Position numbers and translations under genes: made by a program. DNA of 64,000 bases. Origin: Haplodiscus bocki. Lineage: Eukaryota. Where the stretch lies: positions 7,874,001 through 7,938,000 of the forward strand of contig OZ296654.1 in assembly GCA_965655095.1 (NCBI GenBank). The letters run 5' to 3'. Each line of letters begins with the position of its first letter. Position 1 is the stretch's first letter. Positions 11,563-55,398 of the stretch are shown piece by piece. Below the pieces are notes generated by a model. The model had not been told where the DNA came from and made no database searches. It worked only from the letters and a program-made list of their open reading frames with translations.

Positions 11563-11842
11563 TACTATTAAATGGTTACAGAAGTATGAGAAAAATTTGA
11601 AAAATCAAGACATGTTAAAAATAATGATAAATCTAAAAAAAATTATTTATGAGGTGAAAGAAGAACTAGATATTATGATGGAGTTCAATCTAAGCAACAT
11701 AAATGTAATAAAAATAATATATTGTAATTTTATATTTTAACAGAATTGTATAATTCAATATAATATTATATTTTCAATTTCAATTATACTTAATTTTATA
11801 ATTTATCATAACCCTATATTTTATATTCAACAATATTTAATA

Positions 11843-13537: not shown

Positions 13538-13559
13538 AATTTTTACGATTTATCCTTAA

Positions 13560-21000: not shown

Positions 21001-24000
21001 AAATTCAAACTCCAGAGGTCGGGGTTTCGAATCCCAATATAAGCTATAAGCTATGTTTTACACCAATATTATGTACAAATGTACCCAAAAATATACCAAC
21101 TACTTACCGTCATATAGATCTACCAAAATTTTTCTCAGCAGCCCCCTATGAATTTTTTGGTAGTTGAGACGAAAAACTTCAAAAATGAATATTGAATAAC
21201 CATTATTGAAGTCGAATTTTCTCGAAAACCAAAACTTTTTGTAAAGCATCAAAGCCTACCCCTCAAAGATATATTGAGCCTTACGGCAAAGCCGACTTGA
21301 GCGTTCCAGGATTAATTCCTGAAAACATAGGCAGCACGGTTGCAAGGAAAATGAAATTACCAACTAGAGAAACCCATGTTGCTCGAAAGCTGCTTTCAAT
21401 TTTTCTGCGACGATTTAGACCCAAAATTTAGGCCCAATAAATAGATAAATATCAAGGTTCATTTACTCTACGAACTACAGTGGTTGCTCAAAAGTTTCGA
21501 TCGATTAGGATAACCTCATAAAAACCAAGTTCACTCCGTTAAAGCTAATTTAGAAAAATGTAGTAGGGACACTAAGATGAATATCAGGATGTTTTTTGTT
21601 TCAATTTTAACACTTTAGCGGAAAAATGCTTCATTTAAACGCGAATAACATTAAAATTCGTCAGATCACAATGATTTATTTTTTTCACATGAAAAATGTT
21701 CACGTCATGAGTAAAAAACGTTTCTGCCAAACCGTTCAACAATACATCTCCGCAAAAAATTAAAGTTGATAAAACTGGAGGAGACTTGAATCTCTGAAAT
21801 TATGACATTTGTTGCCTAATATGGTCAGTACTGAGTTTTTTCTCTGTTAAGTTCAAAATAGAGAGAAAATGATAAAAATGGAGTGCGCAAAAGATTATAC
21901 AGAAGCAGAAATTTCAGAAATAAAAACATCGATTCGTAAAATTCCATGAAACTTTTGTCCTTATAATATCTCTCTAAATCAACTTCTTACGGGAAAAGTG
22001 AAACTTGGTTTTCAAGAGGTAATCTGAATCGATCCAAAACTTCAATCACCCAATGTATAATACTACAAGCCAAGAATGGCCACAGTCCGCTCCGCCTGAA
22101 TGGGTGAAAACGCTCGTAGGACAGAGTTGATTTTGATATTTGAAAAAAATCACTTTGGTATATTTTTGGCAAAAAAAATATAGCTTATGCTGGGATTCGA
22201 ACCCTGAAGTTGTCGATTCGCTAGATTTTATAAGGGGGATATAAGGGGGAATCATGAAAAATTTTGGACCAAATTTTTTCGACAATAAGTAAATTTTTGG
22301 CATGGTTTCCGGTATGAAATGTAAAAAAAATTGGTATGAAATGTAAGAAAACATAGGTTATGCATGGATCGAAACCGCTACCTGTCGATTCATCAGATTT
22401 AATAAGGGGTTATCACGAAAAAATTTTCTGACCAAAAATGTCATTTTTTGGAAATAGGTAGATTTTGGTATATATTCTGGTGTTAAATTTACAAACATAT
22501 AGCCTATACCAGTATTAGAACTCGCGAACTGTGGATTCGGAGCCTTTTTGTTCTACCTAGTGGGCTATATGAATGGTAAACACGAAAAATGTTTGGACCT
22601 AAGGCCCAATATTTTTTTTGCAAATCGGTAGATTTTTGGTATTTCCGGTATAAAATGAAACGAGCGAAAACTTTCGGTATGTACAAAAGTGGTATCAATT
22701 TTTGCCTTTTTTTTGTCTCAGTGCCGACAAGCGTCGTAGGGGTACCATTTTGTGTCTAAAAAACTTAAGGTACTGAATTTTCATCTACTTCAAAGCGAAA
22801 AAGTACTTTTTGGAAGCGAAAGAAAGGAAATACCATAAGAGTAAATAATAAAAACTATTCGCTTCACGTGATCGCTCAGCCGGACACGAAAATTTGGATA
22901 GACCATAGCGGTGTGGTAATATTTTCGTGTCAATTTTTTTGTCTCACAGTACCGAAAATTTCTAAGGACACTCGATATTGTGAAAAGTGAAAAATCGTTA
23001 TACTAGACGAGAGCTTTACAAAAATATCTGACATTCGCGTTTTTGACGTTTCGCAAAATGTGGGGCTGGGTATCACGAAAATTTTTGGTTTTGGCGTTCT
23101 CAAATAGAAATAGTGTTCACCTAAGATCTCAAAAAAATTTGGAGTTTGCGTTTTCAAAAATTTTTGGTATGTACAAAAGGAGGTATAAAACTTTTTTCGG
23201 AGTTTTTTCGTTTCACAGTGCGAAAGACATCGTAGGGGACCGTTACGTGTTTAACAAAATTGTAGCTTCTAAAGATTTTTGGCTAGAGCAAATGGGAGGT
23301 ATCACAATTTCAGTCCGGAAAACTTCGTTGGGGGATCTTTTTGTCACCCTGTAGAATTTGGGCCGCCTTAGGAAAGTTTTTCCAGCTCTGCAAGAAATTT
23401 GTTCATTGTGAACTAAAATTGGATCGATCCGAAGCTAGGAAAAACAAGAAAAGTCACTGTAATAGTCGGGCACTTTTTCTTCTAAGAAGCGCCGACTAAA
23501 AAGAACGAATCTTCATTTCTCGTCCTCAAAACAGGCAATAATGATACATACAAGTTCGCAAAATCGTTCCTTTTTGATGTGTGCCAACACAATATGCTGC
23601 CTTAAAAGTTAGCAGCCCACTTCGATACTTAAATAAGTAAATCATTAAATAATTGCAATGTATGTAGTGTACATAATGGGTGTAAAGTGTAAATAATGGA
23701 TGTCGTTCACCATTTCATTGAGATGAGTGACTTCCTGTAGCATCTTATTGTTATCGAATTGCAAATCATTGATAGTCTTTCTGCCCTGAACGAGCTCCTT
23801 GTCGCGATCAGTGTTGGCCTGATTCAGTTCTTGCAACTTCTGCTGGTAGTAGTTCTCCTTTTCTTGCTTGTAGCCCAGCATCTTGTTCTCGTGGTGGTTC
23901 CGCAAGTCTTCCAACAACTGCTCAATTCGGTTGTTGGCCTCGGAGTCTTTGCGACGCTCCATCTCTTCGATTTCAGTCACTTTCAAAATCGAACTTTCTT

Positions 24001-27000
24001 TAAGAGTCTGAAACATCCTCTTGCGATAGGTTTTACCAAAACTACCTTTTGAAGTACTCATTTCTTCGAATAAAAGCCGCCTCACGATATTTCAGTGTAG
24101 TTTGAATTTCGGTGCGGCTAGTAATTAGTATATCAGTCTAAATACCAAGCGCTCAAAAAACAGTGGAGGCAATTTATAATGTTATTAGAAAGGCAATACT
24201 CCACACTACAAACCCAACCGTTTTCAAATTATTCCATAATTACAACAAAAGAGAAGATAGTTTGATTATACATTTTTACGTCACCGTTGTGAATGATCAT
24301 GTAATCAACATATTTCAAGAGTAAAGAGTGCTGTTCGCTCTAACTGGCGGGATTATTTGATCGGATTAGAGCCGCGATTGAATTGAGACTGCATTCGAAT
24401 TCAAGCCACACCAAAGGTTGTTGCGGCCTTTATTTTTTTCAACAACCTTTGGTGTGGCTTGAATTCGAATGCAGAGGCCGCAACCAAAAAACGAATTCAG
24501 ACAAAAGTTGAATCCTGACACTGGAAGTTGAATGACAGTTTTAACCAGGGACCCCATTAATTCAGGGCCGTGATTTCGCATCATTTTTTTCGTGAATTTT
24601 GGACCAATCAGAAGTCGAGATTCGCGGTGATCTTAAGCTGTAATTAGTAAATTAGCGTGATTTTTGATTTATTGGCGTAAAATAGCGTGAATTTACTGGT
24701 ACCACTGGGGGATATAGGTAACATGGTCCTAATCTTTGCCATCATTTTTCTTGTCTGATATTTTATGACGAACTATATTTCTTCCGGATCAAAATGGAGA
24801 ATAACAATCCCAAAATTGTCAAAAATACTGCAGTGAAAAGCCAGAATTGGTGATTTCTGGGAATAATTTTAGCGTGATTTTCCAGTAAATTTAGCGTGAA
24901 ATAATACAGTCTCCGGATTTTTACAATGAATTCACGCATTAACACAACCATCAGATAAAGGCTTTGTACAGTAGTTACATAAATGTAACTTTATGCATAT
25001 TAAGATTTTTGGTTCACAAAATTCAATCAATTTTTTTCTTCCAGATGTTCGATGTTTTGGTCTCTTGGCTGATCAGACGGTCAATATATGTAAGATTACT
25101 AATATTAGAGACTTTTGAATGACGGAGACGATTCTGGTTCAACAGAAAGGCCCGGAGTTAGAAATAACCGGTAAAATTTTTGACGCAGAAAACGAACAGC
25201 TTCTATGGATTGGAAGCGACAAAAAAATACCGGCTACAAGAGCCAATTTAGACCCACAAAGAAAGAATTGTCGGAATGATCAATTGCAGGAGGTATCGGC
25301 CATCTCATGGTTGGATAAATTTAGCTTCCGATCAAATCCCAATCAATCAATGGGAAAAAAGTCCAATTTACATTTCACTGATAGCTCAAACAAGTGCAGC
25401 CACACTGACCGCCTATCCAAAGTGAAGCCGATCATCTAAAAACTGAATTCTATGGCAATGAAGATTGAAAAAGAGAAATACTGCAGCGTAGACGAAAACA
25501 CCATTCCATATAAAGGAATGAAATCGAAACAATATAATCCAAAACAGCTTAAAAAGTGTGGTTATTATAAATTATACATGATTTGCACGGGAAAATTTGG
25601 TACCAATGTCGGCACAAGTCTCAACACTGGAAAACAGACTGTACCTGGTGACAGCCGCGATAACGACCTACCGCAATTCAGTGCCCTTGTTAAGGGGCTA
25701 AGAAAAATGTTTCCCAATGCCAGCAACTTCAAATTGGTCTTCGGCAACTGGGTTTGCTTCCCTCTCCAGTTGAACAAATTATTTCGCTGTGGCATACAAA
25801 GTGTAGCAACTTTTTAGCTGAATCGTTCCAATGGATTGGAAGTTCAAGACGATAAAGCCCTGAGAACATCCGGGCCTTTGTAGCCAACACAAGCAAGTGT
25901 TCGGAACTCTCCACAAGAGTCAAGCGATAGAATTTCACACAAAAAAGTGGAAAAAACAATGCCCGGTTTAAATCCCGGAATATATGTTTCATGGGGCAAA
26001 CTGGCAATATTGGGCGACTTTCGTCATTGTATCGAATAAAAATAGATAATCGCAAACTCCTTTACCTGCGAATATTTTTTCATTGTGCCGATCTTGCAGG
26101 ATTCAATAGTTGGCTTCTGTACGGAAGAGATCCCCACGAATTTGCCCCAAATCAAAGAACGATGGATCTCTGGTATTTCAAAGGTAAAATAGCATCTGCT
26201 TCATGCATGCACAAAAATTCAGGCAAGAAAAAAATAAAGTGGTATGTTACCGATTCTCAGATGTCGAATATGGTTATTGCTTGAAAAGACGCAGGGGCCA
26301 ACAAAACCTATTCCAGAGATGGAAGTAAGATGCCAAAACTACGCTCTCTGGCCCAAATTCGATGAAAAACATGGGAGATGCAATTTTCCTGAGCAAAGTC
26401 TTGATACAAACACGATGCAAAAAATGAAGCTTATTTGTTTCACAATGGAAAAAAACTTTCGAAACCTTCCACACGCAACAATCATTGATTTTATATGACT
26501 ACAATCAATGAATTGAAATTTTAGAAACTGATATACTTTTCCGTTGTAGAGCATAGAGTTACTTCAGGGTAGCGAACGGTATACCTTACTTCGAGTTATC
26601 CTACTGTGTTAAATTTTGCCGACCCAAGGACACTGAGTTTCATCCAAGAACCATGCGAAATCAATAAAACTTTTAGACATAGACAAAAAGTCATGCAGAA
26701 AAGGTATTGAAAATAGGCCCCTAGCGGATCTCCAATATCGAAGCATGCGAACGCTAAATTGAACGTCATTCCCAAGATGCTAGGATATATAACTTAAAGA
26801 TGCGGAGCAGCGAGTTAATTCGCGGCCGTTTACAGCCTTCTCGTAACGTTTTTATCAAAACTAAACGAGTCAAAATTTTTAGCAAAACCAAAACTTGGAA
26901 AGTTCAATTAACCATGATTTTTTTTGAAATTGTTTCTTTCTAACGGGTTTTCGGTGAAACGTTTATCTCACAATTTAAGATAGTACTGAACACAAGTCCC

Positions 27001-33770: not shown

Positions 33771-34523
33771 ATACTACAGGTGCTACTGGTATATCAACCG
33801 GTGTTGGATAAACTTTCAGAGCTAAATTTTGAAGTTTGACCAAAAATTCTTCCGGTGATTCTGTTTTGTGATTAAATTTCATGTTTTCTAAGTTGATATG
33901 ATGTATTTCTTTCAAGTTTGGATTGCAAAAATGATTTTTCAACGCTGTTATTGTTAATTCTAAGTCTGCTCTGGTGTTTTGGTCAAGTGTGTGGAAAAAT
34001 TGTAATGCTGAGTCTTTTAAGTGTAGTTTCAAAAATCCTACTCGTTGTGCATCAGCAATTCCTGTTACTTCAACTATACTACGGAATAAAGATTCAAAAT
34101 CTGTCCAGTTGTCTGTTGAACATCCGCCGTATTTTGGTAGGCTTACTGTCGATTGAGCTGCTGCTGCCATTTTTGAGAATTACCAAGGTTTTCGAAAATT
34201 CAAGAGTGACGGGCTTATTTGAGCGGATCGAAAAATTACAGACAATGAATGACGGAATGAATCAGTTTAGAAAAAGGGGAATTTTAGTAGTTACTACCTC
34301 AAAATAAATTTACTACTTCGGCGCTGTGAGTTAAAGTGATGATTTCAATTAAGATGATGATTTCAAACAGTTTGAAAACAATCTGAGCGCTATTATCAAT
34401 TTTACTGCTTCTAAAACTCTCTAGGAGTAGAACGAATGTGAAACTTACAGGCAACCAAAATCGTTTCCAGCTTCATCTTTGCACTAGTGTTGAGTTAGAG
34501 TGTCGTTTGTATTTCCCAATAGA

Positions 34524-35452
34524 CGACCTCATGAGCTTGCAAATTTGGAGTGAAACCCGCTTTTTACTTTTCAACTCGAGGAAATGTCACTATCTCTTGC
34601 TCAAGGGACAGCTAAATTTTCCACCTGAAATATACTCTGAGGAAATTGCTGAGTGTACTCGAAATACTGACCTGGGTCTGGTGGTAAGTAACAACCTCAA
34701 ATGGACTGCTCATATAGAAACTAAGCTTGCAAAGGCAAACAAAACATTCCAGATGTTGAAGAGAAATGTCAGCAAATCTATTTCGCAATATTCAAAACTT
34801 CTCTTGTACAAGAGTACAATTATCCCCCAACTTCTCTATGCATCAGAGTGTTATTCTTTATCAAGAATGGATGTCAGAGCTCTAGAGGCCTTCAACAAGA
34901 AAATCGGCAAATGGATGTGCTATTTAGATTCCTACAAGGACAGATTATCTCACCTGCAAATTTTGTTTTTGACATATTTCATGGAGATGAAAGAAATTAT
35001 TCTGTTATCGGGTATTGTTACACACAAATATGATGTAAATTTTGATTACAATATTGTTATGAAATATGGGCGAAATGAAATACAGTTCTACTTACCTCAA
35101 ATATCCTGTGAATTATTACGTGACAATTTCTTTTATCGTGCCTGTTATCGAGCTAATGTCCTTTCCAAACACTTGAACATCACCGACAATGAAAATATCA
35201 AAAAGAAATTACTTACCCAAATGTGGAAAAAATTTGTTGAACAATATCAAGAAAACAACATCTGCTCATGGCACTTTGTTTGCCTATGTGTAACGTGTAG
35301 GAGCATCCACAGAAGACAGATGATCATGAATGCATAAATTATTGAAGCCTGATTCGACAGATATTTCAAGAGCAACAACAACGGAAACTGTTATCAATGA
35401 ACTCATTTAATGGGAGCAGTCCCCTCGCTTTGGGCGTAAATTCAGTATATAT
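34524..35452 (+). mobile_element. 5'-truncated CR1/L2-type LINE inserted into the leader of the second Gypsy copy
   Basis: Absent from the homologous position (about 54767) of the long copy. Flanked by ATAGA duplicates (34519-34523 and 35453-35457). Encodes an RT C-terminus (DLMSLQIWSE, FNSRKC, DLGLVVSNNLKWTAHI, LLYKSTIIPQLLYAS) and ends in (TA)n. Confidence 0.9.
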
Positions 35453-35814
35453 ATAGAAGTAGAGTTCCCAATCTTCTGGTTTTGTCAGGATCGTCCTGCT
35501 GTTTCTTCTATTTTAGACCAGTAGTCCAGAGATTCTTCAGTTGTCGTTGTGGATGATCACAGTGTAGCTCGTCGTCGCACACTCCTGTCACCATCTAAGA
35601 TCGCACCTCTTCTTCTATGTTTCGTAGTGTTTTCTTCAAGCCTGAGCGGGTATTTAGTATTCTCAAAGTATTTCAGATTCAATGTTCTTGTTGGATGCGG
35701 GGTCCCGTGGTTAGACTTGCTACAAGTGATCTGTTCTACAACTCTTCAAGCTATCGAAAAAATGGTTAGTTTTGCAGATTTATGAATTCAACTTTACTGT
35801 ACTGCGTCGCCGCT

Positions 35815-36087
35815 TGTTGAGTATCAAAATTGTTATGTGCTAAAGTTAATGATAAGAGATAATATAAATCATGAGGTATTTCCGTCATTTAACATATTTA
35901 TCTAAATTAAGCATCTTGCTGAGTTTAAGATAAGTTTTGAAGTTTGAAGTTCACTGGAGGAATGTGGCGCCATTAAATGATTGAAGGGTGATTAGAAGAT
36001 TAGATCAAATAATTTTGAGTTTAAATGGGCGTTCTTCTCATATGAATTTTGCTTTTTGGCATTCCGATCGTAACATGGAATGTTACA
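35815..36087 (-). repeat. LTR shared by the two copies (3' LTR of the long copy, 5' LTR of the truncated copy)
   Basis: TGTAACATTCC...TACTCAACA; preceded by the PPT and followed by the PBS-like AGCGGCGACGCAGTAC. Confidence 0.93.
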
Positions 36088-36849
36088 CTACCCTCCTTGC
36101 TGTCACTTCGCCGCTGGTTACATCATGAAGAAGGCGATGAAGTTCATCTGCTATGGAAGAAGCCAACCCAAAATTGCATTAGTATAATTCCACATTCCAA
36201 AACCAAAAGGTGTAGTCAATTACAGTATATTGTTTTCCAAACTGTATCCAAAACAGTAGAGTCTTAACCAATGTAGGAAGAAAAGAATAATGTATTGAGT
36301 TGAGATTCCATCAAATGTTTGAGGTGAAGAATATTCATTATCCAAAGAAGAAAAATTGTATCCAATAGAGTATCCAGAATAGTTGAAGAGGGTATTGAAA
36401 ATGTTGAGAACCAAAGAGGTCATCCAGAATAAGTGTTGTGAAGATTGCCAGCGCACAGTCTTCCAGTCCCAGAGAGAGTTTTTAAATTTTATAAATTTAT
36501 TTGCACCACAGTTGAAGTGAATAAAATGAGTTAAAGTTAAAGATAAAATGAAGTCAATTCTAATTGTTGTGATAAACTTAATAAATAGATCTTTTCAGGG
36601 ATTTGATGCGGGGGTGGCAGTTGACATTCCAGATTGTTTGATTTCTATATTTACCTCTCGGTATTGCCATAGTATTATCGGTATTGCCGTAGTACTATCG
36701 GTATTGGCGTAAAAAGCTGCAGAAGTTTCCAATACCCTACTACAATAATCTCAACCTTCAAGACACAAAGTACAACAACAGGCCACCTTCTTAGGTTCCA
36801 AAAACGTTTTGTATTGATATAAATCGGTTGCAAACAATATTTCTACAAT

Positions 36850-37610
36850 ATGGTCAAAAAAGGCAAAAAAAGTTCAACAAAAACCTGTCTATGCTCTACA
36901 TGCTCTGCTGAATTATCAGACAATTCCAATTCCATATTTTGCGATTCGTGTAATAACTGGCATCATGGGTCTTGTGTGAACTTATCTGCTGAAAATATTT
37001 ATTTCCTTGGGAGTAGTAATAAGCTTTTTTGGAAATGCAACAGTTGTGTTTCCATTAAGGTTACGCCACTTAATACACTAGAAGCGAAAATTGACTCCGT
37101 CCTATTCAAACTAGAAGAACCCAGAACTGAAATACAACCAGCTCAACCCTCAAAACCTATAGAAGTATTACAAAACAAAAAATATGATCATCACTATAGA
37201 GTTCGTATTTCCGGAATTAGTGAAAGCAAAGAAAAATCATTTATTGATAGACAATTTGCTGATAAAGAAAAAGTGGAAGAAGTCTTCAAAAAACTAAATA
37301 TCGATTGTCCAATTATCGAAACAAACAGACGTGGTAAATTCATTGAAGATCGCCAAAGAAAACTAATAGCTACTTTCTCATCACCATGGGATGCGCGTAT
37401 AGTAATATCTAGTGGAATTCAGAAAAAATTTTTTGAAGCCGATAAAAATCTTATTACAACGGATTTATCACCATCAGATCTTGCAATAGAAAAAAAAACT
37501 ATTATCAAAGCGCTATGAACTGATATCCAATGGTGTGACAAAAGAAACTCTGAAAATACGTTACTTGAAACTTTATCAAGGCAATAAAGAAGTAAACTTC
37601 GACTGACTAA
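36850..37610 (+). pseudogene. LINE ORF1 with a PHD finger and an RRM-like region
   Basis: CSTC...SIFCDSCNNWHHGSC...WKCNSC (C4HC3), then VRISGISES and TTDLSPSD. Frameshift in the A-run near 37490. Confidence 0.85.
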
Positions 37611-37619
37611 ATAAAGAAG

Positions 37620-40379
37620 CAAAATGCCTCTTAATCAATTGTCAGAGCCTTCTCTCACTTAATCGTCGCTTATCGTTACCATCAAAGGTAAATTTAATAT
37701 CCGCCGACATTGGTTTGTGCACCGAAACTTGGCTCGATGAGAATTTTACACAAAATATTTTTCCTGAAGGCAATTGTTCAATTATAAATCGTTCGGACAG
37801 ATATACTGGTACACACGGCGGTGTATTGGTTCTGTCTAGAAAATGTTTAAAAGTGCGCAAAGTATCTCTAAATGCCGATTTTATGTGCTCAGTTATCTAT
37901 AAAAATGTACTTATTATTACCATATACAATCCACCCTTTACCAGTGATTTTCGCATCAAAGATATTATTCTGACAGAGAATATCGACAAAACTATTTCCA
38001 AAGCCAAATGTGACAACGTTATTATTTGTGGTGATTTTAACAAGCGAAAAATCGATTGGAACAGCATGACTGAAAGCACAACTTCATAGTATCCCGTATT
38101 CCTCGAAATGTTAACTAAAAACGGCTATGAACAAATTATTACTTCACCCACCCATCATTCTGGAAATATTCTCGACTGTGTGTTCATAAATTATGGGTCA
38201 ACGCACTTTACCATAGATGAAAAATCATTTTCCGATCACTATTTTGTTGAGTTCGACATTCCGAGAACACACTCTTCATGTGACTCTACATCTCAGCCTA
38301 TACTGTCCCTTAAACCAGATAACCCAATAATAAATCAGTGTATCGGATCTAATTTATTCTCATTTTTTACACCTGATACGACTGCCTATTATTCCCACTG
38401 GATTGGAGAATTAACCTCCATTATTCAACCCTTCTTCAAACGTAAGCGGCAAAGAAGAACCCAATTTCCTAGCTTTTACAGTTCGCACACTATTCACATG
38501 CTCAACAAGCTCCATACTACACACAGAAGAATCAATCGACAACCAACGTATATTCCCACATCATCAGTTCAAATATTAACCACCAATGTACAAGAATCTA
38601 TTGCTCTTGATACCCATATTTTCATTGAAAAATTTGTAGACGCGAATCTGAACGTTAATGATTGCTATAAACTGATCAATTTTTTCCAACGTAGCAATAA
38701 ATTACCAGCTTTTATGACTCTAAACGATGAAATCCTAAATGATGATCTTAATAAAGCGAATGGTTTCACCAAACATTTTTGCTGTGTTTTTAAGAGAGAT
38801 AGTCTACCATTTTCTGATTTCTCTGAAAATACCCTAAACAATATTGAATTCACAATTCAAGACGTCGATAAGGCTCTACAACAAACAAAACGTGGTTCTA
38901 GTACAGATGCTATTAATGGTTGTTTCATCTTACAGACTTCTAATGCACTGGGTATCCATTACCATAATTTATTAAAGAACTTGTTAAAACACTCATATTG
39001 GCCAAATGAATGGAAGCAAGCTATAATAACACCCCTTCATAAATCTGGTAATATCGAATCGATATGTAATTATAGACCAATTTCTTGTTTATCAAAATTA
39101 TCATTAGTATTTGAGCGCTTACTGTTCAATAAATTATATGATTTCTTCTCCCCCAATTATCCGGCTCCCAATTTGGTTTTATGAGACGCAAATCCACGGT
39201 GCTACAACTAATAATTTATTTGCAGGCTATCTACAATAACGTTGACACAAATACAGATTGTTATGCACTTTATCTCGATTTCTCAAAAGCATTTGATAGC
39301 GTATCTCACGCGACGCTACTCGAAAAATTACGCCTTTTTGGTATTGGAGGATCTTTGCTAAGGTTGCTACTGAGCTACCTAACAAATCGCGTTCAATGCG
39401 TTAAACTCAACAATATTATATCAGCGTCATTACCAGTTACCAGTGGTGTGCCTCAGGGATCAATTTTGGGTCCACTCCTATTTTTGGTTTTTATCAACGA
39501 CCTGCCAACCCAAGTATCGCACTCAAAAACGTTCCTGTATGCCGATGATCTTAAGTTTCGTCATAACAACCTTCTGGAAATGCAAAATGATATATTAGCA
39601 CTTTCTCAGTGGTCACAGGTAAACAAATTATCATTCAATGCCAAAAAGACACAGTTCATTTCATTCGATTTTCGGTCTCAAGACTGCATCACAGATGTTC
39701 CAGTTCTTATCCTGGATGACCATGAAATATTTCTTCAAAAAAGCATGGTTTATCTTGGTCTATCTTTTTCAAGCAACTTAGCTTGGTCAAAACACATATC
39801 TGATCGTCTAAAAGCATGTTACATTAGAATTATATCCTTAAAAAGATGTCTACCGCTGCATATACATAGCCAAATCAAGACTAAATTGTATAAGACCTAT
39901 ATTTTGCCAAATTACTTTACGGGTCACAAGTTTGGTCCCCGAATCGGAAAGACCTATCTAAATTAGAACATTTCCAGAAAAACGTCTCAAAGTGGATATG
40001 CAAGGGTGCTACATACAAGACTAGATTAATCTCGTCCGGTTTACTTCCTATAAATCTTCTCCTGAAAATAAACGATCTGCTATTTCTCAACCGAATCCTA
40101 AATGGCATGTATTATTTTGATTTTCAAAGCTTTTTATCGATCACTTACCCCTGTGACAGTTTTTACTACAACACTAGATCTACCCTGAATCCCGTTCTCA
40201 AGGTTAAATCAACTCGTACAAAACAGGCCGACAATCACTTTTTCCAGCGAATTGTTTTCCTGTCAAACTGGTTGATGAAGGAGCACAATGTAGACTCTTT
40301 CGTTGAGCCTAACATCTTCGAACCTCGAGTGAAACAGTTGTTCAAACGTTTATTTGCATCAGATGAATATGTTTTATAA
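37620..40379 (+). pseudogene. LINE ORF2: apurinic-type endonuclease and reverse transcriptase, with frameshifts
   Basis: LCTETWL, HGGVLV, IYNPP, ICGDFN, PTH.SGNILDCVF, SDHY; then NYRPISCL, YLDFSKAFDSVSH, SGVPQGSILGPLLFLVFINDLP and LYADDLK. Confidence 0.93.
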
Positions 40380-40542
40380 TTTTTAGTTTGTCATATTGTT
40401 TAATTTTTAGTCCCTACGAATAGTAATAAAGTCTTACATACATACATACATACATACATACAATAAAAATGATCCGCTTGAAAAATTAAGAGAAATGGTC
40501 CCTTTTCCACGGTTGGGAAAAAAGACGTTCAATGTACACTTT

Positions 40543-43579: not shown

Positions 43580-44788
43580 ATTTTATGTGGGTATATCACT
43601 TGCGAAAGTGAAACACAGCGAAGGCTCGAGATTGTCAAAACAGTGGCTAAAATGACTACACGATTTGAAAATAAAATGGAAGGGAACCTGGAGAGAACAC
43701 TGTCCGAGGAGAACCTGATATCATTAGGATGGCTACCCGTCCCATCCATTGACGGATCAAATTGTTCCTCGTGGGCGGAAATTGTTATGAAAATGAGGGA
43801 ATCCGGTATGGATATTATAGTGGATGCGGATTGGCCCACTTGTCCGATTGTGGTTAGAAATCAGAAGGAATTTCAGGTAAGCCCCGAGTTTTGTGCAAAG
43901 GTAGCGGAGTCTAGTGGGAGAGTACGTTGGATAATAAATGTGCAGAAGGGATTTTTTGTCCCCAAGCAACAACTCTATGGAGCAATTAAAAGTCACGATA
44001 CTGACTTTACTAAGAAATCACGCGCCTATTCGTTCAATCTAGAGGGCCTAATAGACATGAAAAAGCCGGAAGCAATTACGTTGACTAAATTAGATGGGAT
44101 TATAGCATATGGACCGTGGTTTACTTCTGGACATATCGAAACTAGAGGGGATGACAGTATTACCCATGTGCCAATTGGAAGAAAATTAATGGTCATTGCC
44201 AAGCGTGGAAATCCAGCTCGAAGATTGGAGGCACTGATGACATCGGTGAAGTCGCTAGTAAACCTGTTGATGAAACCCCCGCCAAAGAGATTCGGTTGGG
44301 ATGTGAAGTTGTTTTTCACAAGTCCAGATGCAATTATGGTGCAACCTGCTCTTTGGACACATACTGTGATCATTTTCGGAAATGGGCCTTCTCTGGTTGT
44401 CGGATTTGAAGGTTTACTAAACAACGATGGCCTGCGGAGAGAGCAAGTTTTGAAAAGATTTGCCTCTGGTATCGAGCGCGAGAGGCAGACTCATCTATTG
44501 CAAATTTTACCGGACCACGCCATATTAAGAAGGTTAGAAACATCAAAGAAGAAGAAGACAGCCCTGTACGAGCAACTAGATTGTCTGCAACACGATTCAA
44601 AGTCCTCGCAATCCACTTCCAGCAAACGAAATTGTTTCGTAACCCGAAAAAATAGACGACTGTTGAATTTGCCACGTTGCCGAAGACGCATTGAACAGAA
44701 AATGGCGACGAAAAAAGGTAAAATTATCACTCGTAAAAAAAGAATTCTGCATTTTGATTCAAGGTATTTTCAAATGGACCCTGTCTAG
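43580..44788 (+). CDS. JmjC-domain Fe(II)/2-oxoglutarate oxygenase (histone-demethylase-like), antisense accessory gene of the Gypsy element
   Basis: Stop-free frame from 43568 to 44788. It contains WFTSGHIE (His 44132, Glu 44138), GRKLMVI, and SPDAIMVQPALWTHTVIIFGNGPSLVVGFE (His 44360), plus a basic NLS-like tail. The 5' end may be spliced; otherwise the first ATG is at 43652. Confidence 0.8.
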   Translation: MLCGYITCESETQRRLEIVKTVAKMTTRFENKMEGNLERTLSEENLISLGWLPVPSIDGSNCSSWAEIVMKMRESGMDIIVDADWPTCPIVVRNQKEFQVSPEFCAKVAESSGRVRWIINVQKGFFVPKQQLYGAIKSHDTDFTKKSRAYSFNLEGLIDMKKPEAITLTKLDGIIAYGPWFTSGHIETRGDDSITHVPIGRKLMVIAKRGNPARRLEALMTSVKSLVNLLMKPPPKRFGWDVKLFFTSPDAIMVQPALWTHTVIIFGNGPSLVVGFEGLLNNDGLRREQVLKRFASGIERERQTHLLQILPDHAILRRLETSKKKKTALYEQLDCLQHDSKSSQSTSSKRNCFVTRKNRRLLNLPRCRRRIEQKMATKKGKIITRKKRILHFDSRYFQMDPV

Positions 44789-45685: not shown

Positions 45686-46006
45686 TTACAGTGACTCGCG
45701 CTGATTATACCAAGCCACGGATTGCATGGCAAAGACGTCAAGGTGAATTAGCCAGTCGACAAGTGAATCTTGGCTAGCTGTTTCCGCGTTACGAGCTGCG
45801 CATGCGATCAACTCATTCCAAGCAGGGGTGTTCGGGAAGGTGGGGTTGTGCCAATACAATAAATGGCCATAATTCCATCGGTGGAATGTCAAAATCAGTG
45901 GGGGGTAGCCAAGTTCGCCGCCCATACCGACTAGTTGAACTCTCCCAAAAACATCGCAAACGTAGTATTCGTGGGAATAAAGCCAATTTAAATGGTGCTT
46001 TTTCAA
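45686..46006 (-). CDS. Accessory ORF C, unknown Trp-rich family (paralogue of A and B)
   Basis: 106 open codons; shares the LxW...W...L......P....W..L...A.......DW pattern with A and B. AATAAA overlaps the stop. No ATG at the aligned start. Confidence 0.6.
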   Translation of the reverse strand: MKKHHLNWLYSHEYYVCDVFGRVQLVGMGGELGYPPLILTFHRWNYGHLLYWHNPTFPNTPAWNELIACAARNAETASQDSLVDWLIHLDVFAMQSVAWYNQRESL

Positions 46007-46346
46007 AACTGAAACGTCTAAAAAAATTAGTATATACTTGAGGGCTATTTAGCTTCTCATATGCTAAAGAAGGTCTGAGTGCAAATTATAATGTTTGACT
46101 TTCATCAGGCAAACCTGACGCTAAAGAAAAATTTTCTTCTTATAAAAGAACAACGTACAAGTCCTAAATGGGATGTTGGAAACTCAGATATCGTGACTCA
46201 ATTAAAAGTGTTTTGTGTTTGTGATTTTTTTGCTTGTTTGTTTTTTTTTTCAAATTTCCAATAGATAAAGAACTAAAATATGAATATTCAAGAAAAAGTA
46301 GTTCCTTTTATAAGAGTAAATAGAGTTGTGCTGTCATGATCTGAAT

Positions 46347-46628
46347 TCACAGATGGCTTCGGCATTGTCTGGCCATCCAATCAAGGAGATCTTCAGCCAA
46401 GTTGAAGTCATGAGCCTAGGGAGCAGCGGCACTCATGAGTGTGCTCCATTCCGGTGATTCCGGGTAAATTGTAAAATCTTTGTATATGAGTTCTCCTTGA
46501 CTCCAATAACGGGTTGTGAAATCCACTCGGGGGGTGATGTATGAAAGGATCACTCTCCAGACCACAGGAACGCCGTGAAAATCACTTTTGTATCCAGTGA
46601 TGGGAATTCTCCAAAATAAACGACTCAT
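46347..46628 (-). CDS. Accessory ORF B, unknown Trp-rich family; in-frame TAG at 46416-46418
   Basis: CACCACC-ATG start with TATAAAA about 60 nt upstream. Homology to A and C continues past the stop (AHDFNLAEDLLDW). Confidence 0.6.
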
Positions 46629-46688
46629 GGTGGTGTCTAACTTTGAATGACTGAGCTAAGACTGATGATAGAAGTGGAAAATCTGTGT

Positions 46689-46695
46689 TTTTATA
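46689..46695 (-). promoter_or_regulatory. Candidate internal TATA box for ORF B
   Basis: TATAAAA followed about 25-35 nt downstream by TCAGT initiator-like motifs, then the ATG. Confidence 0.4.
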
Positions 46696-46754
46696 GAGGC
46701 TGATAAGATAAATGATGATTGATCCAAGATCATTAAGCGAGATCAAGTGTTCTG

Positions 46755-47060
46755 TTACAAGACCATGAAAAATAATGTGCGTTTTTGTGGCTGGTTGACA
46801 ATGATAACCCAGTCAGCAAAATTTTGCAGCTCGTCGTTATCAGCTTATTGCCTGGCGGAATCAATCAATGCACTCCATTCAAATGTATGCGGTAAGACAT
46901 TAAATTCATCAAACACCAGCATTTGGTGGTGCCACCTCTGTGTATAATGTCGAAGACATGGTGGAGTGAGTCCGCGATGTTCAATTCTTCTAATCGTGAT
47001 GTTTTGGAATATCTCGCATGTTAAAGTACGGTGATGATAGCCCCAAAAGAGGTTATTCAT
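46755..47060 (-). CDS. Accessory ORF A, unknown Trp-rich family; in-frame TAA at 46845-46847
   Basis: GAAA-ATG start. Homology to B and C continues past the stop (ADNDELQNFADW). Confidence 0.6.
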
Positions 47061-47447
47061 TTTCAGTCGTTTGAATGTACTGGAATATGATCTGAGGAGC
47101 GTGTCCGCTTTGCTATGGCAGTAAGTTGACCTATGAGGGCTTTAGTTTTGAATATTGAATTCTAATTTGACTTCTGATAAATTTTGAGTGGCTATTTTTG
47201 ATAAGAATTGATTGACAGCTAGTACTGCGAACTCTTATCTTAAGTAAATATTGAAGTCACTTGTATCAGACAGTAAGACGCCAAAGAGTTGATAAAGGTA
47301 TTTGCTAACTAATCGGTTGATCGCACTAAGTGTCGGGTTTGTGAAGATCGGTCAACGTCAGAATTGCATCAATTTTCGGTAGGCTGTGTATTATAAATAC
47401 TTCACTCAAAATTAATGGCTCTCAGCTCGATCGCGCGGTGGTCTCGG

Positions 47448-48020
47448 TTAATGATTAAGCGTTTTGAGCATTCCCTCAAAAGCTAATTTTCGTGCGTTAG
47501 CCATGTGGAATATGTCCATTCGCGTTTTCTCGTCATTCGGATTTTCTTCCGCGAGAAGAGTATTGTCAAGGTTAGAATTCACATGAACTTTCTGCAAGAA
47601 GATGTTGACCCGAATATCAGTATTGGCAAATAAGCACAGAATTATATTGAAAACTCGTGCCCATTCTAATTTATCAAGTCCACACCCGATTTGTGGTAAG
47701 TTATTTTCTTTAATTCCGTACGTTAACATATGACTTTTCATGCGACAGAGACTTTTTCGTAAGTTATTATAATTCGGTTTGTGATAATGTCTTTGTTTTG
47801 TTACCAAATTGTAAATCCAATTGCCATTTGGGCTTGGAAAGTGCGCAATTAGAGATCCTGCCTTTAAATTTCGATAATACGGGCGTAATTTTTCCAATTC
47901 AGGGTGTAATCGCACAAATTGTGTAGCAATTCCTGCTTACATTGCCAAGTCAGAAGAAACACAGTGTCCAAAATTTGCGGTTTTGTCTCGGAGTAAGTCT
48001 CCCTGTAAAATTCGAACGTT
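47448..48020 (-). pseudogene. TARG1/OARD1/DarG-type macrodomain at the C-terminus of pol
   Basis: VRILQGDLL....FGHCVSSDLAM*AGIATQF...WIYNLVTKQRHYHKPNYNNLRKSL......LPQIGCGLDKLEW. It is in frame with the post-integrase linker, with one stop at 47937-47939. Confidence 0.88.
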
Positions 48021-51000
48021 TTCAGGAAGGTCAACACTTTCAATTGAAGTAGCGCACATTTTCAGTTGAAAACTAGCTGAATAAATGTCGCTAGACGGAG
48101 GAGGCTGTCCTCGATTAGATCGTTCGGGATACCGTTTTTTCAAAAGAGACTTCTCTGGTGTCTTGTTTATGTTAGGAACTGAGATCCCCGATTGTGAAAT
48201 AGGTCTCGTTTTTTGTGCGGTATTTACTAATATTTTGTGTTTTTCTTCCTTTGATAGCGGGAGCTCTAGTTCTTGCTGATTTAGAAATTCATAGTAACCA
48301 CATTCAGTTAGTGCTCTCCTCGTGGGAATGTCCCGAAAATGGTCATAGCGATCGAATCTAAGTCTCTGCCGTGGCGGAGTTTTTGTTAATGAACTAGTAG
48401 GTGCAACAGGTATTTGCGACTGTCTGGTCATCCGTTGATGACGCGTAGGATTTTCCGTTGACAATGCGGCCCCCTCGTCATTTTTTGTGAGATAGGTTCG
48501 TTCGGTCGTCGGAGATTGCTGGGAGCTTGTGGCGTGTACCTGGATCGGGTCGTTTAGGTAAGTAGGTTCAGGAAAATTTTCGTCGTCCGATCTCGCGGTT
48601 TCGTCTGATCCAGGTACGGGTGGTGGTGGGAACGGGGGCACCGTGTCTGCCTCTTCAATAATTGCGGCTGGCTCTGCAGGTCCAGCAGGCGCTGGTTCTT
48701 CTGTCGTGGCTGGCGTTATTACACCACGTATTGTGTGTTGCACTTCGTCTGTTCTGTTATGTTCAATCGTCGGAACTTCTGGCATCTCGATGATGTCCTC
48801 GTTTAGTGAAGTTTCAAGCGCTTCATCGAAGATTTCGTGCTCAGATCGATATTTGCCCAACAAAGGGTCAAGTTTGAAGTCTTGTTGTGTTACGCTAATG
48901 TCTTCTACGTCATAATTAGGCGTAATCGGTCTTAGTGGTATGCGGTGGACACATTGCGTGTACGGTGTACCGACTTTTCTAATCAAGTAGATAGATTTGG
49001 TCAAAACTTTTTCATTTTTGTGTAATGAAAGCCATATAGTGCAAGATTTGGCTGCAAAATCACTTTGTGTCAATAACGAAGGTTTAGTAGTAAGCAATAC
49101 TGATTTTGTACTAATGGTTTTGCTGCTGCTTTTTTATCATAGTAGGTTCGATATTTATGATAAGCATCTAATAAGCGAGATTTGGTATGCGAAAACTTTT
49201 CCAGTAACGAATCCTGCAAATCAACTATATAGTCTGATGTAAGTTCTTTTTGAGCGAGTGTATGACTTCTAAATATCAGATCAATTGGTTTAATTGGCTC
49301 TCGTCCATGAAATAATGAACCAGGTGTGCATTCAATAGATGAATGATACGAAGTATTGTGTATAAATGTTGCAAGGTCAACATATTTGTACCACGTTGTC
49401 CATTTTTCGTCTGTATTGAGTTTCAGAATCCGCTTCAGTGCAGAATGAGATCTTTCAACTACCCCTATTGTTTGTGGATGCTTCAAAGAAGCATGTTGCA
49501 GTTTAATTTCCAAGAGGTTAGTGAGTTCATGCAACATTTTTGCAACAAAACTCGTTCCCAAATCAGACAAAATAATTTTAGGGATGTAACTATGTTGAAA
49601 AAATATAGAAACCAGGGCCTTTGCTATTGTTCCAGCATGTGCAGATGTTAAGGGTATTGCAAACAAGTATTTGGAAAAGACATCTATGCCTGATAAAACG
49701 TATTTGTAGATAAGCGACTGGAACGGGCCAACTAAATCCATTTGCATCATATCACCAGGGAAAAGTCGCTCCGATGATATAGGCTGCAAAAGTGGGTTTA
49801 ATTGTCTTTTGGAAACTCTTTTCAGGGTTGAACATGACAGGCAATTTTTGATGTAGTCCGTGAGGAACTCTGTGAATCCTGGAAAGTAGAATCTCTGTCT
49901 AAACTCTTTCGCTGTGCGAACAATTCCGAAATGTCCCCCTGTTGGTGAGTTGTGTATTCTGTAAACTACTTCTTTCCTCAGGTGTTTTGGCACACATATT
50001 TGGTAATGTGATATTTTTCCTACGTCATCGAAAAATTGACGGACCAAAATACTTTTTTGCATTTGTAGGCGCGTAAGATGTTTATAATATTTTCGCAATT
50101 CAAAAGATGCATATGTTAGGTCATCATTGCATCCGGTGTCAATCGATGTCATCACTTTTCGTAATACAGGATCTTTTTTCTGCTCAGTTTCAATATCTAA
50201 TGCCTTTGAATTTAAGTTGGACACTTGAAAATAATTCATCGGATCTTTTTCTTGTATTGAGTTTGTTTCTGTTGCTCTTTTTATAGCGTAAAGTTCGGGT
50301 TTTTGATCATACGATGCTGATTTCAGTCTTTCGTCCAAATTTGGAATCAAACTCTGTAGCGTATCATTAGATTGAATTTCTTCAATCAGGTCTTTAGTTA
50401 CAGTAGGTTTTGCTTCTACTTCTTGAACTGATTCTATGGCTAGCATTGATGCATCAGGTGTTTTTGCTTTCATGTCTATTTCTATTTGCTTCAACGGAAT
50501 CGAATCTACTAATTGGAGTTCGAGACTTTCGTTAGGATCTGTTTGCATTCTTGATAAAAAGTCTGCTGCAGCATTCGCTTTTCCTGGAATATGCGCTAAA
50601 ACTATGTTATACGCAATTACTCTATCCATAAAGTTCCAAAGCGAGGGATGGAGTGATTTTGATTGAAAAAAAATTGTTAGGTTTTTGTTATCAGTCAAAA
50701 CTATCACCGGTTTTTCTGCACCCAAAATGAAGTGTGAAAAATGTTCTATAGCGAAAGACAGTGCCAAAAACTCCTTACAGTATGTAGACATTTCCAATTG
50801 ACTTGTATTGAACAATTGTGAACCAAAGGAAACTGGTGCATACGCTTGTTTTTTCTTTCCATCCTTTACTACTAAGTAATCTTCTATCATTAAAACAAAT
50901 ACGCAACTGTAGTAACTAGCGTCGCATAGGATTACGTATTGTTGTCCTGGTTTTGCTAATCGCAGAGTTGTTTTCGTTGCTTGCAACAAGTCTTTCTTTA

Positions 51001-53161
51001 TTGTTTCGAAACGCTGCAAGTGGTCATCTTGTAAATCAAAATCAACGTCTTTGCGTAATAATTTATACCACGGCATCAAATTTTGTGCCAAGTTCGGTAA
51101 AAATGAACGGAAAAGTAGGACAAATCCTACCAAGCGTTTCACTTGTCGCACTGTTGCTGGTAGTTTCATTGTTTTCAGAAATTTTTCGATTTTCTCCGTT
51201 TCAGGTTTTAGTCCTTGAGGTGTTATTGTATTGCCAAGAAAATTAATTGAGGTCATTCCAAATTCACATTTATGTGGTGTCAATCGTAGTCCTGATTTTC
51301 TCAAAGAGCCAAATATTTGTCTAAGAGTTGGAATCCTTTGTTCAAATGTTTCCACTCGACATCCGATATCATCCATAAACTATGTACATAAGTTGGCCGC
51401 GAGGCAAGAATCAAGATAAGATCTGACAAATGAGCTAAATCCTGTCACTGATTTGTTTATTCCTTGAGCTAGTCTTGTGTAGGCGTACGTTCTCGAGGCA
51501 AAGTTGAAGGATAAGAGTTGGACTGATAAGGGGTCAGCCATCTGTACACAGTGATAAGCTTGTGAACAATCCAACTTAGTAAACAAGGTCTTTCCTGCAA
51601 AATGATGAACGGCGTCTGTCACATTTGAAATTGGGAAATTCTTATCGCTGTAATCATTTCGATGGAGGTGATTAACACGCCTCAAATCGATTAATATTCT
51701 CAGTTTCCCTGACGGCTTGCCTTGTGCAAATATTGGACTGCTATATTTAGAATTTGGTAAAAGTGTGACAATGCCATAATATTGCATTAGCGCTAATTCA
51801 ACTAAGATTTCATCTCTCAAATGAATTGGTGTTGGCGGATTTCGAACATAGACTGGTAAATCATGTGCCGGTGTTAATTTCACTTTCAATTCTGTATTAT
51901 AACCAACGTCGAAGCGATGCTTTGCAACAATGTCATAATATTCAAGCAAAAGATTTTGCATTTCAGCAATCTGAGCTGCATTTGATGATGATTTTGACCA
52001 GTCGAACTGTTTCAGAAATGTTTCTTTATCTTTTTCGTTAGACTGCGTATTAAGTGAATCACGTTGTTGTAATTCAGAAATGTTATCGAAAATTTTCTTC
52101 TGAACTGGGGGCAGATTTTCCGGGTTTTGACATGTTTCTGGTGTAGGAAGCCAAATTTTTTCGTACTCAGGCGATGGACGTTTGGGTTGTTGACTAATTC
52201 TGTTATTTCTAACTCGTAAAAATTGGTTTATTTGATTCAAAAGTTCACCATTTTTCATTTTGTCCAGTGCTAGGAGTTCCGGTCCAATTTCTATCATTTT
52301 TTCTTCCTCTTGTGGTGAGAGAAATTGGAAAACTGCTACTTGTTTGTTTTTCGGAAAGGTTATTGAATGATCATTGAGGTTGAGAGCCAATATGGATACC
52401 ATATTGTCTTTTCCGACTGTAACAACTGATGATGACAGTTTCAACTCCGTATTATTTTCATATTCTTCAAGTGGAATTATCATTCCTGTGTGTCCTTCAA
52501 GTTTTTTCGAAAATTTGATCTTTGTGTAGAAAATTTCTTGATTTTGTGGCTTGACAGTTGTTTTTTGGTACATAAGAACCGGATATCTACTTTTTGGAAT
52601 TTTACGTCTTCCTTCCTTGGGTTTTCTTATCTCATTGAGCTGATAAGTCATTTCTGGCAGTTTCAAAAGATTTTCGCCAGGACTGATTTCAATGTTATAT
52701 TTTTTGAAAAACGGGTTACCAAGAACAACACTATTCATTGAAGGAAGTATCAGAAAACTATCCTGAAAATTGTGGTCACTAACTTTGAATTTAACATCCA
52801 CCTGAGCCAAAACTTTTACTGTTCGCCCAGAGGCTACTTTCACATTCAAAAATGAGGCTTGTTGTAATTCGGAAATGGAATTAGGGGATTCCTCTTTCAA
52901 TTTTTGAAAAAAATCCGCTGGCATTGCGTTTGCACAAGCCCCTGTGTCAATTAGTGCTCTCCTGCGTAATTCATTTTCAAATTTCAATGGAATATACATA
53001 AGGTTTTCTCCTTCAAGCAGAAGAACTTCATTAATTTCATTATTAGTGGTTAAAGTCTTCTCTGGGTGCGTTCTTTGTTCTGAAGGTTCTAGAATGTTAT
53101 CTGTGGTGTGCAAAGTAAGGTTAATGTTTTTCTCTGGACTGGCTGACGTGTGTGGCTTCAT
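47448..53161 (-). pseudogene. pol: Pol polyprotein: protease, RT, RNase H, integrase, Pro-rich linker, macrodomain
   Basis: ALIDTGA; LRILIDLRRVN, TKLDCSQAYH, FMDD (stop just before it at 51380-82); ILCDAS, VLTDNK, NAAADFLSR; HNSPTGGH..CLSC, MDLVGP, SDLGTSF, VVERSH. Frameshift near 49075. Confidence 0.96.
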
Positions 53162-54416
53162 TAGTTTTTTGCTTGCGAGTTGAACGGTATTTGTCCACCT
53201 CTGGTACTGCTCTTTACTCTAGCTTTACAATTTCGAGAGTTATGGTTTGGATAACCGCAACTATAGCAAACTTTTTGTGAAAATGCAGTAGTTTCAATAT
53301 GCCCTCCTGAATTTCCAGTGTTTATTTTTGTTTCGTTACTTTGATATCCTTGCTGCTGAAAATTACTGTTATTGAAGTTATTGTTATAGTTATTCGAGAA
53401 GTTGCCTCTATTATTGCCTTTAAGGTTATTCCTCCCTCGATAGCTTCCTCCATTGAAATTATTACCATATCTGCCGCGATTTTGGTTTTTTTGATACTTA
53501 TTTGATACTTGATTTTGATAGTTTCGATTTTGATATCCTTGATTGTTTGAAAAGCCTCGATTTCCTCTATTTTGGTACGTTCGGCCTCTGAAATTCCCTC
53601 GCAAAGTTTGTTGTTCGTTGTCCTTATAGGTATTTGATGAATTTTGTTGCAGTGAATTAAGCTTTTCCGTCAAGGCAACAATTCTGTGTTCAAGGGAGTT
53701 TTAATTTTCAGACATTTTTGTGAGAACTGTGAGAAATTTTTCTGAAATTTCAGCGCTCATCTCATTAAATCCATCTCTTGACCAATCGTCAACTGGACAT
53801 AATTCTCTAAGAATCAGTTTTTGCCTTGCTTTTGTGCATAATTCTTGAATTGTTGCATCTCTAGTTCTTCCAGAAGTTTCAGTCTGATAAAATTTGGCAT
53901 TGTTTTTTTAAAGAGACGAATTATATGTCTTTCTCGTTCCATTTGTGAAAAATTCCCTGTGTTTTGATTTTCTCGTGTTTCACGATCGAATCTGTCCTGG
54001 TCATTTGGTACGTCTCCATCTACAGGTGCTACTGGTTTATCAACCGGTGTTGGATAAACTTTCAGAGCTAAATTTTGAAGTTTGACCAAAAATTCTTCCG
54101 GTGATTCTGTTTTGTGATTAAATTTCATGTTTTCTAAGTTGATATGATGTATTTCTTTCAAGTTTGGATTGCAAAAATGATTTTTCAACGCTGTTATTGT
54201 TAATTCTAAGTCTGCTCTGGTGTTTTGGTCAAGTGTGTGGAAAAATTGTAATGCTGAGTCTTTTAAGTGTAGTTTCAAAAATCCTACTCGTTGTGCATCA
54301 GCAATTCCTGTAACTTCAACTATACTACGGAATAAAGATTCAAAATCTGTCCAGTTGTCTGTTGAACATCCGCCGTATTTTGGTAGGCTTACTGTCGATT
54401 GAGCTGCTGCTGCCAT
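53161..54416 (-). pseudogene. gag: Gag with an Asn/Gly/Arg-rich region and a single CCHC zinc knuckle; one frameshift near 53850
   Basis: LPKYGG....WTDFESLF, FLKLHLKDSALQFF and ESPEEFLVKLQNLA are capsid-like; the knuckle is CYSCGYPNHNSRNC. Confidence 0.9.
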
Positions 54417-55108
54417 TTTTGCGAATTACCAAGGTTTTCGAAAATTCAAGAGTGACGGGCTTATTTGAGCGGATCGAAAAATTACAGACAATGAATGACG
54501 GAATGAATCAGTTTAGAAAAAGGGGAATTTTAGTAGTTACTACCTCAAAATAAATTTACTACTTCGGCGCTGTGAGTTAAAGTGATGATTTCAATTAAGA
54601 TGATGATTTCAAACAGTTTGAAAACAATCTGAGCGCTATTATCAATTTTACTGCTTCTAAAACTCTCTAGGAGTAGAACGAATGTGAAACTTACAGGCAA
54701 CCAAAATCGTTTCCAGCTTCATCTTTGCACTAGTGTTGAGTTAGAGTGTCGTTTGTATTTCCCAATAGAAGTAGAGATCCCAATCTTCTGGTTTTGTCAG
54801 GATCGTCCTGCTGTTTCTTCTATTTTAGACCAGTAGTCCAGAGATTCTTCAGTTGTCGTTGTGGATGATCACAGTGTAGCTCGTTGTCGCACACTCCTGT
54901 CACCATCTAAGATCGCACCTCTTCTTCTATGTTTCGTAGTGTTTTCTTCAAGCCTGAGCGGGCATTTAGTATTCTCAAAGTATTTCAGATTCAATGTTCT
55001 TGTTGGATGCGGGGTCCCGCGGTTAGACTTGCTACAAGTGATCTGTTCTACAACTCTTCAAGCTATCGAATAAATGGTTAGTTTTGCAGATTTATGAATT
55101 CAACTTTA

Positions 55109-55126
55109 CTGTACTGCGTCGCCGCT
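55109..55126 (-). promoter_or_regulatory. Primer-binding-site-like sequence
   Basis: AGCGGCGACGCAGTACAG directly follows the LTR's terminal CA. It has CGG where TGG is canonical, in both copies. Primer tRNA not assigned. Confidence 0.55.
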
Positions 55127-55398
55127 TGTTGAGTATCAAAAATGTTATGTGCTAAAGTTAATGATAAGAGATAATATAAATCATGAGGTAATTCCGTCAT
55201 TTGACATATTTATCTAAATTAAGCATCTTGCTGAGTTTAAGATAAGTTTTAAAGTTTGAAGTTCACTGGAGGAATGTGGCGTCATTAAATGATTGAAGGG
55301 TGATTAGAAGATTTTATCAAATAATTTTGAGTTTAAATGGGCGTTCTTCTCATATGAACTTTGCTTTTAGCATTCCGATCGTAACATGGAATGTTACA
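55127..55398 (-). repeat. 5' LTR
   Basis: TG...CA ends. My hand count is about 9 substitutions and 1 indel versus 35815-36087. Confidence 0.94.

Follow-up and report, generated by a model that had tools for sequence, protein, structure and literature searches.

What are the three short reading frames that follow one another on the minus strand of a stretch of the Haplodiscus bocki genome, and to what do they belong? The stretch, a 64,000-nucleotide (nt) piece of contig OZ296654.1 (assembly GCA_965655095.1, positions 7,874,001 to 7,938,000), is referred to here as the window. A preliminary description, made from its letters alone, had taken the frames for tandem, highly diverged paralogues of an unrecognised Trp-rich protein of about 100 amino acids (aa), and had proposed that they are novel accessory effectors. 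The three, termed A, B and C, turn out to be accessory genes carried by an animal long terminal repeat (LTR) element of the Ty3/gypsy group, which is errantivirus-like and bears an env gene, the latter being only probable; they are not host genes. They lie as follows:

47060-46755, minus strand: paralogue A, 101 codons, with an in-frame stop at 46845-46847 (codon 72) in the window copy
46628-46347, minus strand: paralogue B, 93 codons, with an in-frame stop at 46416-46418 (codon 71) in the window copy
46000-45686, minus strand: paralogue C, about 104 codons, open, without the ATG at which sister copies start

Three related minus-strand motifs are indeed found where they had been reported, and their paralogy is real. 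Local BLOSUM62 scores, with stops read as X, are 75 for A-B, 94 for A-C and 80 for B-C, against shuffle means of 25-27 (standard deviation 4.5-4.8), and for none of the pairs was the real score reached in 5000 shuffles. DNA alignments of the same pairs are no better than shuffles, the real scores being reached by 145, 291 and 128 of 300, in keeping with the slight DNA similarity remarked upon earlier. When A-class and B-class sequences are aligned separately and the two profiles are compared, HHalign returns a probability of 94.7 (E 6e-8) over 86 columns. In a family alignment of 27 sequences, numbered on C, Trp 6, 61 and 83 are kept in 24/26, 25/27 and 23/24 rows and Pro 56 in 25/27. Of the four Trp and two Pro previously aligned, these three Trp and one Pro are well kept, but Trp 42 is found in 19/27 rows and Pro 33 in 20/27, and the list had overlooked Cys 15 (25/27) and Ala 68 (27/27). 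‘Trp-rich’ here means 4-6 Trp per ~100 aa.

The predicted structure of A has a predicted local distance difference test score (pLDDT) of 79.9, and that of C a pLDDT of 91.4 and a predicted template modelling score of 0.81. The elements occur in the same order in both models, a beta-meander of four strands plus helices. Sequence and fold searches with the family against 48,161 PDB representatives yielded no clear fold or PDB match, Pfam likewise gave no clear match, and in 17 family members no chromo, Tudor, SH3 or VPR match was seen in Pfam at E up to 10. The family is still an unrecognised one. Neither a membrane segment nor a signal peptide was seen in the A, B and C proteins (hydropathy maximum 1.06), and no conserved catalytic residue set was found across the family alignment. 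Since membrane segments and conserved catalytic residues are lacking, the product, as modelled, appears to be a soluble intracellular domain of small size that most likely serves in binding or as an adaptor.

In the window copy, the ~100-aa products of A and B could not be made as written because of the in-frame stops. These fall in the same alignment column, and a programmed signal was considered and rejected: of the 29 sisters examined, 28 have a match to A and the column is open in all of these (28/28), while in B it is open in 28/29. The coinciding stops are decay. The window copy is thus broken in all three genes, A and B being stopped and C having lost its start.

Have the genes been maintained elsewhere? 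Each has at least 150 matches in the genome, which measures 1.5 Gb and, since it encodes Wnt, is that of an animal. At 28 of the 29 closest sister loci examined, A, B and C stand in order, the remaining locus being without a match to A. With the window copy included, full-length single matches without a stop number 27/29 for A, 22/27 for B and 26/30 for C, so that the frames are mostly open. The mean pairwise ratio of nonsynonymous to synonymous change (dN/dS) is 0.338 for A, 0.316 for B and 0.125 for C, in each case lower than in any of the five alternative frames of that DNA; the nearest control, the antisense frame with third positions in common, gives 0.49 for A and 0.30 for C. When 28 copies are compared with one sister locus (L006), mismatches amount to 3.9-6.5% in the open reading frames (ORFs) against 9.7% and 15.4% in the spacers, third codon positions are the most changed within the ORFs, and 9 indel events fall in the ORFs against 224 in the B-C spacer. 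Between element families, the proportion of synonymous differences (pS) is 0.64-0.83 and that of nonsynonymous differences (pN) 0.22-0.38. A, B and C have been kept by purifying selection while the elements replicated.

Twenty loci hand-picked for divergent matches all adjoin a macro, pol C-terminal, antisense or env gene (20/20), and among the 50 loci inspected, from at least 150 matches per ORF, no copy was found outside an element. The array varies from two to four genes across element families, which had escaped the first reading. One family has two paralogues, an A-type gene and a further class, D (L032-L035, L050), another has four, of A, D, E and C types (L037, L038, L041, L044), and L036 and L048 carry A, B and a stub of C. 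Orthologues are 40-63% identical between families, with synonymous sites near saturation, and identity between paralogue classes is 16-38%. In a FastTree phylogeny of 27 sequences, which is midpoint-rooted and leaves the deeper order unresolved, classes A (0.96), B (1.0), C (0.99) and D (0.95) each unite different element families. As the classes join across families, the duplications predate the split of these families: tandem duplication of a small gene came first, the divergence of this genome's element families second, and individual families have since lost or kept members. Together, the dN/dS values, the tree of classes and the divergence of ORFs against spacers bear out the earlier suggestion that the duplications are old and that selection at the protein level has preserved them.

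A search of 1.84 billion protein representatives returned 33 matches, comprising 29 short family proteins and four weak, repeat-like ones. The 13 that were looked up all came from ENA records. One (P0039) is identical to a locus in this genome, but the best matches here to P0021 and P0027 reach 41% and 36-38%; given how poorly these two match, at least one other assembly carries another family. Viral and JGI metagenome contigs searched with the family gave nothing credible.

Local amplifications were also observed. At L049 (G000:C12, ~67.75-67.81 Mb) there is a tandem array with a unit of ~1.44 kb composed of a macrodomain, an A-type and a D-type gene; seven units occupy 10 kb, several of them frameshifted, and more matches lie nearby. 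It is possibly a satellite or an amplified cassette. Further local tandem duplications of the A-B-C segment occur on G000:C7 (39.92-39.93 Mb), C10 (49.68 Mb) and C1 (63.97-63.99 Mb), those on C7 and C10 at a spacing of ~2.5 kb.

The element in which A, B and C reside has the order LTR, gag, pol-macro, A, B, C, antisense JmjC-like gene, env, LTR. Its remaining parts in the window, with the reverse transcriptase abbreviated to RT, are:

54906..55398, minus strand: 5' LTR, 493 nt, with a TGG-starting primer-binding-site-like sequence directly after it
53161..54416, minus strand: gag, in pieces here; a sister frame of 420 aa matches Ty3 capsid and CCHC weakly
47937..53161, minus strand: pol, with protease, RT, RNase H, integrase and a C-terminal extension, broken by stops and frameshifts
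47448..47936, minus strand: TARG1/OARD1-like macrodomain; in sister copies with an uninterrupted frame, pol ends in it
43643..44788, plus strand: antisense JmjC-like gene, 381 aa
40543..42946, minus strand: probable env, broken here; its class I fusion-like features comprise RxxR, a hydrophobic peptide and a transmembrane (TM) segment late in the frame
36559..40460, plus strand: insertion resembling a long interspersed nuclear element, with PHD finger, endonuclease and RT, between env and the 3' LTR and absent from mapped sister copies
35594..36087, minus strand: 3' LTR, 97.6% identical to the 5' LTR, with a purine-rich tract before it

Domain matches around the ORFs give pol the Ty3/gypsy order of protease, RT, RNase H and integrase; the gag match to Ty3 capsid is weak (E 0.025). 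In one sister (L075), a single frame of 1923 aa contains RT, RNase H, integrase and Macro. The two LTRs are 99.2-99.4% identical in three sister copies, and two of the three copies checked have a 5-bp target-site duplication, which argues that the element family moved recently. The genes thus occupy a slot between pol and the probable env of an LTR element, and in this retroelement sense ‘accessory’ was well chosen; ‘effector’ names a putative role. The first reading had missed both the env-bearing Ty3/gypsy element itself and the broken state of this copy.

Two neighbouring genes bear on what A, B and C might do. The macrodomain matches TARG1/OARD1 in the PDB at E 1.6e-20, and the Lys and Asp motifs, which we take to be the catalytic ones of TARG1/OARD1, align residue for residue; ADP-ribose-erasing activity is predicted here. 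The antisense gene is 362-381 aa long across copies, and its His-x-Glu and distal His are invariant in the ten rows where it is present. It was placed among JmjC clusters by the protein atlas (score 0.96), and Pfam and PDB sequence searches returned no match. Among five copies whose C genes are 90-100% identical, it occurs in three versions that are 38-49% identical, and env is 92-96% identical in the four of these copies compared. The cassette appears to have been exchanged between copies by recombination (window 43643-44788; L070, L071, L074, L076). No match to it was found at L033.

The frame of ~800 codons before the 3' LTR is a probable F-like env by its motifs and position. An 804-aa sister frame has RxxR at 172 and hydrophobic windows at 179 and 674; Pfam and PDB searches gave no significant match, the best seen being to fusion glycoprotein F over the cleavage region (E 0.91). 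Two sisters have uninterrupted env frames (L076 3627-6038; L074 3589-5946) with no in-frame ATG in the first 70-90 codons, which suggests that env is also joined by splicing to an upstream start.

Beyond the 3' LTR, at 33774-35593, there is a tandem, truncated second unit with this LTR in common: a second primer-binding-site-like sequence, a leader and a gag start 99.6% identical to 54020-54769. Its leader carries a 930-nt insertion (34524-35452) with a 299-aa frame that gave no Pfam match and forms the end of a longer frame, present in many copies (at least 131 matches) and reaching 967 aa; the insertion is probably a 5'-truncated non-LTR element. Elsewhere in the window, positions 1-12400 form an AT-rich block (GC 25-29%) with broken-up frames; judged by eye, these look like a Polinton/Maverick-type element. 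By their motifs they are presumed to include an ATPase-like (3908-4372), a capsid-like (5305-6266) and a DNA polymerase B-like frame (8624-11159); five frames scanned in this block had no Pfam match. An inverted repeat spans 11843-12426, a degenerate tandem repeat of 7-8 copies of a ~120-nt unit lies at 13550-14519, with related inverted copies near 22922-23177, and a perfect 35-bp inverted repeat with a 16-nt loop is found at 24389-24474.

How would three genes deep inside an element be expressed? An A is present at -3 of the start codon in 29/29, 26/26 and 29/29 copies of A, B and C. In Oikopleura Tor elements, both splicing from the LTR and an internal promoter are known as routes to env (PMC4402516; this and the other papers cited by number are drawn on in part). 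In the present elements, a YAG lies 10-12 nt before the ATG in six of nine gene classes (background 0.095, nominal P 5e-5), and one variant of the antisense gene also has one. The sites in the window are:

47080..47082, minus strand: YAG, at a distance of 22 nt from the A start; the distance is 11 nt in the A genes of the two other element families
46637..46639, minus strand: YAG, 11 nt ahead of the B start, a candidate for a splice acceptor or an initiator
46009..46011, minus strand: YAG, 11 nt ahead of where C would start, likewise a candidate for a splice acceptor or an initiator; ~20 nt upstream lies a branch-point-like motif

Branch-point-like motifs lie ~20 nt upstream of the YAG in B and both C classes, and several of the sites, as we read them, also resemble an initiator motif. 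The placing of YAG in six of nine classes suggests that A, B and C each have their own spliced or internally promoted mRNA. A common poly(A) site was tested and rejected.

Env-bearing Ty3/gypsy elements of animals are described as three-gene elements. The present one, though of a known kind, has five extra coding units, three of them from a protein family without annotation. In lentiviruses, the vpr and vpx genes are likewise paralogues of ~100 aa located between pol and env; they have their own spliced mRNAs and encode non-enzymatic anti-restriction adaptors. Vpr, however, is all-helical, whereas the A and C models have four strands, and there is no sequence or fold match and no VPR hit at E up to 10. 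The likeness is best taken as functional analogy, not homology.

By the Ty3/gypsy tests that were run, the element belongs to that group, and its sequence indicates that it would work like an F-type errantivirus. It shares with errantiviruses the LTR-gag-pol-env-LTR order, the RT-RNase H-integrase order and a multi-copy state, as well as an env with a basic cleavage motif, hydrophobic peptide and TM segment as in the F type (PMC13524379). It differs in the interval from pol to env, which spans ~4.5 kb and holds four extra genes, and in the macrodomain on pol. As the metazoan survey limited the pol-env interval to <=1000 nt, it would not collect the present layout; the words ‘macro’, ‘accessory’ and ‘antisense’ are absent from its main text (PMC13524379). 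LTR elements of bdelloid rotifers take up extra ORFs after pol, typically with spliced messages, but in each case a single ORF3 is added, its type being known (env, GDSL, DEDDy, TM, coiled coil), and not a paralogue array of unknown fold (PMC5408684). In plants, Retand has a long post-pol region with antisense ORFs (PMC11963269), and an orchid Gypsy element has captured a 2-oxoglutarate oxygenase, an AlkB-like demethylase proposed to act against host surveillance (PMC9289625). Unlike the present element, these have no env and carry TRP28 or AlkB, not JmjC, and no sense-strand paralogue array is reported in the portions of the two papers used (PMC11963269, PMC9289625). The splicing and internal-promoter precedent of Oikopleura Tor concerns env only (PMC4402516). 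The literature on LTR elements that was searched held no tandem paralogue array of unknown fold.

The explanation favoured here, tentatively and at a little under even confidence, is that A, B and C form an accessory cassette, like those of complex retroviruses, of small binding proteins that counter host restriction or silencing. A small gene was duplicated in tandem before the element families split, and the paralogues were then kept by purifying selection. Each would be translated from its own short mRNA, produced by splicing to an acceptor ~9 nt ahead of a strong start codon or by initiation inside the element, into a small, soluble, intracellular domain of beta-meander and helices, a non-enzymatic binder or adaptor. 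Its job would be to bind and neutralise host restriction or silencing factors, the paralogues being specialised on different partners, and the TARG1-like macrodomain, predicted to erase ADP-ribose, and the JmjC-like oxygenase may act alongside. This reading is prompted by these two neighbours, by the captured demethylase of the orchid Gypsy element (PMC9289625) and by a gain and loss typical of accessory cassettes, as in the three versions of the antisense gene. Several points weigh against it. The counter-defence role is argued from neighbours and analogy only, and the selection measured is purifying, not diversifying. The dN/dS means are taken over copy pairs that are not independent of one another, and among the closest pairs B has a dN/dS of 1.1, as expected for decay after insertion. 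Env is assigned by motifs and position, without a significant match. The P of 5e-5 for the YAG is optimistic, the gene classes being related, and YAG at -11 is absent in three of nine classes, including A of the window's element family.

Other roles are less probable. It is unlikely, if still worth entertaining, that A, B and C regulate the element's own expression or RNA handling in the manner of Rev or Tat, an SH3-like beta part binding nucleic acid or else a transcription or export factor. That they are passengers copied from a captured host gene and of hardly any benefit to the element, or are no genes, would suit the broken A, B and C of the window and the families in which just two paralogues or truncated remnants persist. 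This is made very improbable by purifying selection and by frames conserved both within families and from one family to another, by the confident predicted fold and by the absence of copies outside an element at the loci inspected, and the selection and ORF-against-spacer data have already largely refuted it. Highly diverged chromo, Tudor or SH3 domains, acting as readers or decoys of methyl marks, are improbable: profile-profile tests with the genome's own domains gave probabilities of 0.14 for chromo (23/60 shuffles as high), 0.20 over 5 columns for Tudor (3/40) and 0.13 for SH3 (30/40), against 94.7 for the positive control of A-class versus B-class, and the Pfam scan of the 17 members, as above, found no such domain. 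A place in the virion or in entry, as matrix-like proteins or as chaperones or partners of Env, is to be given similarly little credence. The matches underlying it are not significant, no signal peptide or membrane segment is present, and the single conserved Cys contrasts with gL, a secreted protein held by disulfide bonds. Moreover, the metazoan survey contains intact env elements with <=1000 nt between pol and env, so genes of the A/B/C type are not generally needed for env (PMC13524379).

Interest is limited by the family being known so far from one genome and ENA assemblies. It is conceivable, though doubtful, that an invertebrate Ty3/gypsy lineage has independently evolved the layout of a complex retrovirus, with a modular cassette directed against the host: a pol-borne eraser of ADP-ribose, a JmjC enzyme encoded antisense and open to exchange, and two to four small proteins of undescribed fold on their own spliced mRNAs, these last serving as Vpr/Vpx-like antagonists or decoys of transposon silencing. 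If A, B and C do counter silencing, these small, well-folded proteins would provide handles on how retroelements contend with defences based on PIWI-interacting RNA, chromatin and ADP-ribosylation, and the element would represent an independent origin of retrovirus-like accessory genes.
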